This document shows, in pieces, positions 10,801 to 13,800 of a stretch of DNA of 15,345 nt (positions are counted from its first letter, which is position 1; every line of letters starts with the position of its first letter). Made by a program: the position numbers. The DNA is from a virus (taxonomy: Duplodnaviria > Heunggongvirae > Uroviricota > Caudoviricetes). The stretch lies in IMG/VR virus record IMGVR_UViG_2529292919_000012; one strand, written 5' to 3'.

Positions 10801-13800
10801 CAAATCACGACTCCGCATCAAAGTCATCGCAGACGTTCCAGACTCCCGCCGCCGCGACCTCGACAACATCCTGAAAGGTTTACTCGACTCCCTTATCCAC
10901 GCCGGATTTGCGGAAGACGACGAGCAATTCGATGACATTCGCGTAATTCGTGGTGTGAAAGTACCAGGCGGACGGCTTGGAATAAAAATCACCGAACTGG
11001 AGAACGCATGAACGCCACAATTCAAACGATACTAGAGCTTCTTATCCAGACACGAGGCAATCAGACCGAAGTGGCGAGGATGCTTTCCTGCGCAAGAGGA
11101 ACAGTGCTCAAGTACAACCGAGACAGCAAAGGCGAGCGTCATGTAATAGTTAACGGCGTCCTGATGGTCAAACAGGGCAAGAGGGGAAGACGATGAGACT
11201 CGAAAGCGTAGCTAAATTTCATTCGCCAAAAAGCCCGATGATGAGCGACTCACTACTGGCCACAGTTTATTGGTTTTCGTAACTGAGTCATTTTATTATT
11301 TTATTGCAACTTTTAATCTTTTATAGTGCGAAATAAATGGAGCTGGCATTCATTTCGCACTTTATGTTTTTGTTGGACTTATGTTATTTTGATTGAATTC
11401 AATTCAGTTAAAAAAAGAAGGTGATTGCTCCATTTATAAATGAATAGTCATCCCCTGTCTTGAATTCTGATGTTACTTTATTAAATGCTAGTGTGAAGGC
11501 TACAGGTGCATACCCAATTGTTGCGCCAACTTGATATTCATCAACAGTTTTGTTTAGCGATACTGTTGTTTGTTTCGTCTGTATTGTTTTTCCTTCGAGA
11601 GTATAGTTGCGATTGACATCTCGTCTTTCCATACCTGCAAAAATCTTGTATTTGAATCCGCTTGTATCGGACATATGCATTAAACCACGGGGAGCCAGCA
11701 GACCAAAGCCATTATCCGAATTGAAGGTTTTATCATTACCAATGGCAATGGTTGCGCCATATGCTACATATTGAAATAAGTTTCCAGTAACAGCAGAAAC
11801 TTCAGGGTATAATCCAACATTAGCACCTAAAATATCCATACTTGGTGTCATGGATAGCATCCCTTTTACAGTATAACCGTAGCGATTCTCTATTTGATCA
11901 TCCCATGCATGATATTTTTCTGCCCCAATAATCTCATGAGCTTTATTTTGTACTTTCTGACCGCCTGCGTCGGGGCCAACAACACCTATGTCAGTACCTA
12001 ATCGATAGCGAATCCAGTCATTCGCAAGGGAGTTCCATTCAATACCAGTGTGAGTGTATGCACTAAAAGCTCTGTCTCCAGTTACAGCTGTGTTGTGTCT
12101 TTTATTACTGCCTGATGGAGAGTAAATATCTTGCGCAATATGGAGAGATAATTGGCTCGAGTCTGAGATATCGTGGCTATATCCCAGAAATAAGCCTTGT
12201 GAGTAATCATCTCTGTTTTCATGTTTATTGCCATAAATATCATTAAGTATTGGTTGAAACTTCCCTGCATCATCATTTGCTAATGATAATGCAAGGCTGT
12301 TCGCGATAGCTGAACACGTGGTAAATGACAGAGCAATAAAGACGCCAGCGATGACACTTTTTTTCATATGTTATTGTCTTCCTTTTTTTGAATGGTGCGC
12401 GTATTTTACATACATGAGTTTGTAATACAAGGTGCGTAATCAATATGATGTTTTATAATTGCGTGAGACAATTGATTTATTCGTTTTTTATTGTGGTTTT
12501 TATTATCTTTTAATGTAGCGGTGTTTTTATTAAGTGTGTTTGCGTGGTGTTTTATGTTTTTTATAATTTTTATTTTATTAAATTTAAAAGCATTAGTAAT
12601 GGCTATTCTATATAGCAATATAAGAACTGTTACAAAAAAAGGGGGGCAATTACAGGTAGTTATGGATGATGAGTGAAACAGATATTGGAGAACCGGGGAA
12701 TGAATGATGTCTGAGTCTTATATATCAGAACTCCTTCGCTGTCGCTGGGGGCTCCTGTGCTTATGTCGTTTCCCCGATTCGGTTTTGAACGATTACCGAA
12801 TGTTGAAGAATTATGCCAAAATATAGAAAGGATTTACTGCATGAATACCCAATATTTACAGTATGTTCGTGAGCAACTTATGGCAGCTACTGCTGACTTG
12901 AACGGAGCAACGAAAGGCCAGCTCGAAGCCTGGCAGGAGCATGCACAATTTGATACTGGTACATACAAACGAAAGAAGCCGCGCATTCTGGATGTGGTAA
13001 CTGGCAAGATGATTACGCTGGATAATACGCCGACTTCCGGTAAGCAGTCGTACGCAAAAGGTTCATCCATTGCTTTGGTCAGCCCGGTTGAATTCTCAAC
13101 CTCTTCATGGCGCCGCGCGGTTTTGTCTCTCGATGAACATCAGAAAGCATGGTTGCTTTGGTGTTACAGCGAAAGCGTTCGATGGGGGCATCAGGTCACC
13201 ATAACGCAATGGGCATGGAGCGAGTTTAAAGATTTGTTAAGTAACAGAAAAATTGCAGGTAAGACACTGGATCGCCTGAAGACGTTAATCTGGCTGGCTG
13301 CACAGGATGTGAAGAGCGAACTTGCAGGGCGTGAGGCCTATGAATACCAGACACTGGCATCATTGGTGGGAGTGACAACAAAAAACTGGTCCGAGACATT
13401 TACTGAACGCTGGGTTGCAATGAAGCACATTTTTCTACAGCTTGATAGTGATGCTTTATTGCTTGTGACGAGAACACGTTCAAAACAAAAGGCAGCATTT
13501 TTACAGCAAAATATTGCAAAACTGGATTAAAAGCCATATACTTCATGCAAATTTGGTATGTTGTAAAAAATGTATAAACCCGCTGCCGAGTGGGTTTTTT
13601 TTATGCCCTGAGTTGTACTTGTACGGTAAACATGCTGGCTGCTATGTAATAGAGTTTTTTTAGCCTGTAACCTCTTGACGGCATTGAATTGCTTTTGTTA
13701 TGAGTTGTAAGCCAATGTTATCATCTTGTATTGGGGTGGTTATGAAGGATGGTGCGCTGCTCAGGAGTTCTTCACTTTTTATTGCCTACATGGGATGCCT

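Follow-up and report, generated by a model that had tools for sequence, protein, structure and literature searches.

A compact late-gene control unit, very probably of the phage 82 type, at the Q gene of a prophage region shared with phage 434

Overview of the locus

We analysed a 15,345-nt stretch of Caudoviricetes DNA (IMG/VR record IMGVR_UViG_2529292919_000012; hereafter the window), in which the gene for a late antiterminator, Q, is followed closely by a strong intrinsic terminator. The genes and features around it occur in the order: a remnant of a lambda-type Q gene, lpxR (on the minus strand), ylcG, an intact Q gene of the phage 82 type (Q82), the late promoter pR′ with its pause element and the terminator tR′, a membrane-protein moron, a DUF3927 gene, the small RNA (sRNA) gene pasD2, and a NanS-p-type esterase gene (Table 1). 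A sequence-only reading of the window had drawn attention to the terminator at 13576–13602, which begins 45 nt after the Q stop codon, and had considered this spacing unusual for a Q-pR′-tR′ unit; the distance is exactly as described (stop TAA, 13528–13530), while the comparisons below indicate that the region very probably comprises an entire late-gene control unit, compact in form and of the type known from phage 82. In the Q82 family such close spacing is the norm, because pR′ overlaps the end of Q and tR′ starts 28 nt into the transcript. The late switch is thus of an ordinary, already described kind: it is that of phage 434, and of the phage 82 type.

Table 1. Features in and around the late-gene control unit, by position in the window
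Feature	Coordinates	Strand	Basis
Remnant of lambda-type Q gene: 20 N-terminal codons, MRLESVAKFHSPKSPMMSDS, with unrelated residues after them	11193–11282	+	Annotated N-terminal fragment in phage 434
Q82-family late-gene antiterminator gene, 229 aa	12841–13530	+	Matches to PF06323, phrog_304, phage 82 Q and phage 434
pR′ −35 hexamer TTGCAA, within the last Q codons (..AKLD-stop)	13514–13519	+	Sequence; 91–100% per position in 64 distinct loci
Promoter spacer, 17 bp, containing the Q stop codon; candidate Q-binding element (QBE)	13520–13536	+	QBE position per PMC4914094
pR′ −10 hexamer TATACT	13537–13542	+	Sequence; A at position 2 and T at position 6 98% conserved
Predicted +1, about A13549 (leader opens with AAA)	13549	+	Registry with phage 82 pR′
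Predicted terminated late leader RNA, about 50–54 nt, starting at AAA	13549–13602	+	Registry with phage 82 pR′
Sigma70-dependent pause-inducing element, extended −10-like TGGTATGTT, +6..+14	13554–13562	+	Conservation; corresponds in position and type to the phage 82 element (PMC5001585)
Predicted promoter-proximal pause site, +25 (T)	13573	+	Homology to phage 82
tR′ intrinsic terminator: stem 13576–13597 (+28..+49), loop GCCG, T8 run	13576–13602	+	Fold, scan and phage 434 annotation ‘terminator’
Membrane-protein moron downstream of tR′, broken by two compensating frameshifts	13715–14458	+	Intact 247-aa coding sequence in phage 434 and E2348/69
Moron: DUF3927 / TciB-like small membrane protein	14544–14702	+	PF13064, E 3e-14; phage 434 annotation
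pasD2 promoter: TTGACT 14706–14711, 18-bp spacer, TAAAAA 14730–14735	14706–14735	+	Read from sequence
pasD2 sRNA gene, 172 nt, with its own GC-rich terminator 14888–14914	14743–14914	+	Mapped from E2348/69 PasD2
5′ part of a sialate esterase gene, SASA family (NanS-p-like), running off the window end	15001–15345	+	DUF1737, E 2e-16; phage 434 and E2348/69 annotations

The Q gene

Q proteins fall into three unrelated families, those of lambda, 21 and 82. The sequence-only reading had raised the possibility that 12757/12841–13530 encodes a member of the last of these, and a Pfam profile search bears this out: PF06323 (‘Phage antitermination protein Q’) matches at 306.8 bits against a cut-off of 25 (E 1.1e-91), with Q residues 4–219 aligned to model positions 1–216 of 220, and the protein also matches PHROG family phrog_304 (E 2e-108). 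It is identical to the experimentally characterized phage 82 Q at 203 of 229 residues (89%; 89.6% for the DNA, against X92588) and 100% identical to CPT_434_67 of phage 434, which is labelled ‘Q82-like’. All 48 residues that are invariant in our family alignment, of which the window protein is itself one row, are present in the full-length open reading frame (ORF). A PDB sequence search with the protein returned no match. As judged from these matches, the window Q belongs to the 82 family, and by homology to phage 82 it would be expected to let RNA polymerase read through terminators.

Although a reading frame extends from a GTG at 12757 to 13530, the biological start is the ATG at 12841 (MNTQYL...). 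This start is used by the phage 434 record and by all relatives, whose proteins begin MN(T)QYL, and it is in line with the PF06323 model, which begins at residue 4 of the protein. The GTG, by comparison, is used by no relative and would make the gene overlap the small ylcG-like ORF at 12704–12826.

Late promoter, pause element and start site

At the phage 82 pR′, the QBE lies between the −35 and −10 hexamers (PMC4914094), and a sigma70-dependent pause takes place at +25/+26 (PMC4914094, PMC5001585); the initial transcribed region carries an extended −10-like element and GCC at +15–17 (PMC5001585), and changing this GCC to AAA cut the pause about five-fold (PMC5001585). The available phage 82 sequence (X92588) stops at the Q stop codon, and two IMG/VR contigs served as a proxy for its pR′: their Q gene agrees with that of phage 82 at 690 of 690 positions, and we checked them against the published verbal description of the promoter. 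Downstream of Q, both contigs read TATATT-TCATAT-AAATCTGATATTTTGCCAATGTTGTACG; with +1 set at the first A of AAA, GCC falls at +15–17 and a T at +25, matching the published numbering. The window can be written in the same register as AAATTTGGTATGTTGTAAAAAATGTAT, which puts +1 at 13549, the element TGGTATGTT at +6..+14, a T at +25 and the terminator stem at +28..+49. For the window pR′, transcription start, pausing at +25, binding of Q and antitermination are thus predicted by homology to phage 82.

For a more specific description of the promoter together with its pause element, we used the composite motif TTGCAA-N17-nATAnT-N11-TGnTAnnnT. It has a single perfect match in the window, at 13514–13562; with one mismatch allowed, 0.01 matches are expected and one of 200 shuffled sequences scores.

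The comparative set consisted of 80 viral contigs, 66 species-representative genome loci (Q identity 32–73%) and seven annotated phages, and position-wise conservation was computed over 64 distinct sequences. Across these loci, in which Q identity goes as low as 32%, the conservation maxima coincide exactly with the functional positions: 91–100% in the −35 hexamer, 98% at positions 2 and 6 of the −10 hexamer, 89–98% at T+6, G+7, A+8, T+9, A+10, T+11 and T+14, 94% at C+17 and 83% at T+25, with the positions between falling to 34–70%. In nearly all loci where the promoter was found, the −35 starts 17 nt ahead of the end of the stop codon. The distant subfamily represented by phage Flotzy and loci L151–L155 (33% identity) is informative here: in it the same promoter lies 30 nt past the stop, so that its conservation there is not a by-product of coding. 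The spacer itself, the candidate QBE, differs from the phage 82 type at two positions and is also coding in most loci, a conserved non-coding spacer being seen only in the distant subfamily.

Overlapping the −35 on the minus strand, 13506–13519 reads TTGCAATATTTTGC, a match to the CII-site consensus TTGY-N6-TTGY that the phage 434 record labels paQ. The overlap arises because TTGCAA is its own reverse complement. We set this site aside as evidence, as the pattern occurs six times in the window where 4.2 are expected, and its function is unproven.

Terminator and leader classes

The tR′ stem has nine pairs and is followed by a T-run that reaches 13602. The hairpin folds at −12.5 kcal/mol (z = −3.9), a value equalled by none of 200 shuffles, and the whole predicted leader at −15.3 kcal/mol (z = −3.6).

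Among the 66 genome loci, a terminator follows the pause element in 64, and all 64 leaders are shorter than about 115 nt, with 13 sharing the +28..+49 layout of the window; the spacing is therefore not unusual. Of the two explanations that the sequence-only reading had offered for it, a very compact promoter-terminator pair is the one that holds, with the −35 inside the last Q codons and a leader of about 53 nt.

Terminator positions are bimodal among the genome loci. In the compact class (13 of the 66, together with Flotzy and the window), the stem spans +28–30 to +48–49 and leaders are about 50–54 nt, whereas in the long class (51 loci) stems end between +64 and +92 in 50 cases and, as an outlier, at +114 in the remaining one. 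The compact terminators are related by homology, sharing the form AACCCGCC-loop-GAGCGGGTT in 15 very similar sequences, and the stem always begins 3–5 nt past the predicted +25 pause (13 of 66 genomes, Flotzy and phage 434). A tentative idea, to which we give only a small chance, is that the compact leader represents a distinct conserved Q82-type subclass and not a trimmed copy of the long one, with either a differently tuned window for Q loading, in which less than one RNA-exit-channel length would separate pause and terminator, or a trans-acting 53-nt RNA like IsrJ. The missing 82-type internal hairpin points the same way, as does, in the 434 version, GTA in place of the GCC ‘discriminator’ that sustains the phage 82 pause.

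In the long class (L002–L006 and the 51 genome loci), we also observed an extra small hairpin at about +13..+37 that compact leaders lack. The 5′ arm of this hairpin overlaps the pause-element/discriminator region (about +13 to +19) or comes immediately after it, its pairing is maintained by different sequences (GCCA..TGGC, GTCG..CGAC and GCTGCC..GGCGGC), and it forms part of the isrJ consensus structure.

In a separate observation on tR′, prophage PP2 of enteropathogenic Escherichia coli (EPEC) E2348/69 and one IMG/VR contig (L053) carry T for G at window position 13594, in the 3′ arm of the stem; this change (G13594T) removes one C-G pair and shortens the stem. In EPEC RNA-seq data, gene 0686, which lies directly downstream, has a baseMean of 226 versus 69 for Q. 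The higher 0686 level may reflect a leakier tR′ or a promoter of its own (TTGTTA-18-TATCAT, 13695–13724).

Relation to phage 434 and module boundaries

Window positions 12400–15345 are 99.7% identical to phage 434 (OL657226; Feiss et al. 2022) and 99.8% identical to PP2 of EPEC E2348/69, and when 5,426 complete E. coli genomes were compared, approximately 618 carried at least 80% of this segment, in almost every case at 99% identity or higher. Between 12590 and 14044, the window and phage 434 are identical. Because every difference lies outside this interval, the Q gene, the intergenic DNA and the terminator are those of a viable, plaque-forming phage. The phage 434 record annotates the ‘Q82-like’ gene and the ‘terminator’, but not pR′, the pause element or the leader; the present analysis thus places the unannotated late promoter and predicted pause site, along with tR′, in phage 434 and in a prophage module that about 600 complete E. 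coli genomes carry. Upstream, the window departs from phage 434 in having different replication genes and an insertion of the IS21 family, and downstream in carrying two frameshifts in the membrane-protein gene. Beyond the window end, holin, endolysin, spanin and terminase genes follow on the same strand in both phage 434 and E2348/69, which are collinear with the window.

The lambda-type Q remnant opens with 20 residues that we take to equal the N-terminus of lambda Q. Its E2348/69 counterpart is annotated as an ‘incomplete antitermination protein’, and the minus-strand lpxR moron (11408–12367) follows it. As the lambda-type gene is only a 20-codon remnant, the Q82-type gene is the only intact Q in phage 434 and in the window. 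Its standing as the sole intact Q of a viable phage gives indirect support to the predicted read-through of terminators.

DNA similarity between the window and other Q82-type phages ends at +15. Phage 2B8, whose Q is lambda-type and whose pR′ resembles that of lambda, matches the window at 98% identity from the tR′ T-run (about 13598) onward. From these break points, Q, the promoter and the pause element behave as one exchangeable module with tR′ as its right edge. We also noted that the lpxR-ylcG-Q82-pR′-tR′ block replaced most of the ancestral lambda-type Q module, with the right junction to 2B8 at about 13598.

Comparison with known late switches

Compared with phage 82, the window shares an 89% identical Q, the −35 TTGCAA in the last Q codons, the 17-bp spacer, the AAA start, an extended −10-like element at +6..+14, the T at +25 and an intrinsic terminator soon after. 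It differs in the sequence of the pause element (TGGTATGTT in place of TGATATTTT), in two spacer positions and at +15–17, which is GTA where phage 82 has GCC; the window leader lacks the 82-type hairpin at about +13..+37, and its terminator stem lies at +28..+49 versus about +50..+76, giving a leader of approximately 53 nt as opposed to 80 nt. The lambda Q/pR′/6S/tR′ system is organized comparably: its late promoter is constitutive and contains a QBE, polymerase undergoes a sigma70-dependent promoter-proximal pause, and Q overrides a terminator; by contrast, lambda Q belongs to an unrelated family (PF03589), the lambda pause is at +16 (PMC5001585), and the terminated RNA is about 193 nt long (tR′ site +193, PMC4914094).

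Two leader-derived sRNAs bear on the predicted transcript. IsrJ is a 74-nt Salmonella RNA that was detected in vivo, had its 5′ end determined by primer extension, and is reported to affect invasion. The Rfam isrJ model (RF01393) scores 72.7 bits (cut-off 37) on the leader of Enterobacter phage ENT1 (L004, 1567–1640), immediately after the stop codon of a Q82-family gene, and the Gifsy-1 locus of Salmonella shares with Q82-type loci the promoter (TTGCAAAACTGGATTAA...TATATT), the start and the pause element (AAATCTGATAT). By sequence, then, isrJ is a long-class Q82-type leader. Its mapped 5′ end falls within approximately 3 nt of the +1 used for the window, which lends in vivo support to the promoter and terminator assignments at the family level, and IsrJ shows that long-class leaders accumulate in lysogens. 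The window leader differs in belonging to the compact class, with no match to the isrJ model, and the Gifsy-1 element differs in lying after anrP and not after an intact Q82-type 3′ end.

As a side observation on Gifsy-1 (L158, 2501–2607), the isrJ promoter retains TTGCAAAACTGGATTAA, the last codons of a Q82-type gene; lying after anrP, it looks like an orphan pR′ with its leader. The AntQ gene of Gifsy-1 has a different 3′ end and a different leader (IsrK).

StxS, the second of these sRNAs, is the pR′ leader of Stx phages and an Hfq-binding regulator (PMC7547250). Like the predicted window leader, it is a terminated by-product of an antiterminated late promoter in the lysogen, but it belongs with another Q family, differs in sequence, arises by processing of a longer leader, and is an Hfq-bound RNA whose targets are known.

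Proposed mechanism and alternatives

Extrapolating from phage 82, we propose that in a lysogen sigma70 RNA polymerase would start constitutively at pR′ (+1 at about A13549), that sigma70 would re-bind TGGTATGTT at +6..+14, and that polymerase would pause near +25 (13573). Without Q, it would resume and terminate at tR′, where the U-run extends to +54, releasing a leader of about 53 nt. Upon induction, Q made from the early rightward transcript would bind its DNA site in the promoter spacer and join the paused complex, which would become terminator-resistant, so that polymerase would pass tR′, the morons, the pasD2 terminator and the esterase gene and reach the lysis and morphogenesis genes. 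Genes expected to come under Q control in this way are the membrane-protein moron, the DUF3927 gene and the NanS-p-type esterase gene, with pasD2 outside the unit and under its own promoter.

Several results count against a functional late switch of this kind. Generic scans of the window gave no enrichment, with three terminator-like sites versus 2.9 expected and six promoter-like sites versus 8.0 expected from shuffles. At +15–17, the window has GTA although C+17 is 94% conserved, and pausing could therefore be weaker or differently tuned than in phage 82. No RNA from the Q-0686 intergenic region is among those listed in the EPEC RIL-seq and RNA-seq tables examined, some of which are cut short, and a search of window positions 13520–13625 with isrJ (RF01393) gave no match at E-values up to 10 (cut-off 37 bits). 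Finally, the prophage in the window is probably replication-defective: an IS21-family element (5598–7396, minus strand; istA with an rve domain, istB at E 8e-112) sits inside a toprim/DnaB-like replication gene, which is left as two parts flanking it (4741–5541 and 7453–8577) and is intact in E2348/69. With this gene split, the switch may rarely fire in the window's host.

The alternative that fares best against these data accepts an intact unit, but proposes that its selected role in the lysogen is to produce a trans-acting regulatory RNA of about 53 nt, similar to StxS or IsrJ, with antitermination secondary in a defective prophage. That pR′-derived leaders can act as Hfq-binding regulators is known from StxS (PMC7547250), and the reported effect of IsrJ on Salmonella invasion extends the precedent to a long-class Q82-type leader; moreover, the window leader ends in a hairpin and U8, typical of Hfq ligands, and the replication gene of this prophage is disrupted by an IS element. 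We nonetheless consider this improbable. The RIL-seq tables examined for E2348/69, some of them cut short, list no RNA from this intergenic region; the approximately 27 nt ahead of the terminator are mostly conserved pause element, leaving little free seed sequence; and no Rfam family reaches threshold on the window leader. The STnc240 model (RF02074) reaches 28.2 bits, far from its gathering cut-off of 55, with the resemblance mostly in the terminator and an A-run, and we rejected the matches to tsr31, MicC, the Phe leader and similar families as terminator look-alikes. A regulatory function would also be compatible with antitermination, as a function added to it.

A second alternative follows from the sequence-only reading, which had suggested that morons might have been inserted between Q and its target and had pointed to a TTGACT promoter and terminator 1.2 kb further on. 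Here the hairpin at 13576–13602 would merely end the early Q transcript, and the TTGACT unit at 14706 would supply the true late promoter along with the Q site. Both elements are indeed present in the sequence (TTGACT 14706–14711, terminator 14888–14914), and the combination of a good promoter (TTGACT-18-TAAAAA), an RNA of roughly 170 nt and a strong terminator superficially resembles lambda pR′/6S/tR′. Upon inspection, however, this unit proved to be pasD2. The published PasD2 of EPEC (NC_011601, 741157–741328, plus strand, 172 nt) is northern-validated and Hfq-dependent (Table S6, PMC8550237); its coordinates map to window positions 14743–14914, allowing for three indels, its 5′ end falls on G14743, 7 nt past the −10 TAAAAA, and there are no differences at all between the window and E2348/69 across 14244–15345. 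In uninduced EPEC, pasD2 has a baseMean of about 11,000 as compared with 69 for Q and 3.5 for the holin. Identity with a validated sRNA, possession of its own promoter and abundance in uninduced cells all indicate an independently transcribed sRNA gene and not a Q target. Furthermore, in phage 2B8 pasD2 travels with the esterase gene downstream of a lambda-type Q, and is thus not linked to Q82-type genes. The TTGACT unit also lacks an extended −10-like pause element at the conserved position, as the composite motif matches only at 13514, whereas the element adjoining Q carries every conserved Q82-type feature. We judge a displaced Q target very improbable, and with this false lead removed, the pasD2 terminator would simply be one more terminator for Q-modified polymerase to read through. 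The morons are not between Q and its target; they sit downstream of tR′ and ahead of the lysis genes, an arrangement also seen for stx in Stx phages.

Least credible of all is that Q and its site are non-functional relics and that late expression depends on another regulator, since the signs of decay that favor it (the IS insertion, the frameshifted moron, the RusA pseudogene annotation in the E2348/69 counterpart, and the departure from GCC at +15–17) stand against a full-length Q ORF with all 48 family-invariant residues, 100% identity across Q-pR′-tR′ with the plaque-forming phage 434, in which this is the sole intact Q, and retention of the same sequence at 99% identity or higher in the approximately 618 E. 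coli genomes.

We therefore favor the phage 82-type control unit, which also yields two by-products: Q82-family leaders come in two discrete lengths, and Salmonella IsrJ has the sequence of a Q82-type late leader.

Neighboring genes

Compared with phage 434 and E2348/69, the membrane-protein gene in the window carries one T more at 14045 and one A fewer at 14194, which splits it into three ORFs; these frameshifts represent either a pseudogene or homopolymer sequencing errors. Upstream of the control unit, annotation of the E2348/69 counterpart of 10648–11010 gives a RusA family pseudogene that contains an internal stop, and the 95-aa window ORF in this region (10648–10935) has no Pfam match. 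Several relatives carry tRNA genes after tR′, though none was found in the window.

For pasD2, the Rfam STnc100 model (RF02076) aligns over its full length to 14713–14917 at 41.4 bits (E 3e-7), below the cut-off of 47. According to a 2026 preprint, PasD sRNAs are diverged relatives of STnc100 whose neighbors include lpxR, a PF03589 Q fragment and a sialate esterase gene, and in phage 2B8 the sRNA lies directly upstream of the esterase gene. The window pasD2 has the E2348/69 sequence and the same neighbors (LpxR, the Q remnant and the sialate esterase), and as a unit it is separate from the Q switch. The phage 434 record places a coding sequence for a 62-aa ‘putative membrane protein’ across pasD2, with the terminator inside it, which is probably a mis-annotation.

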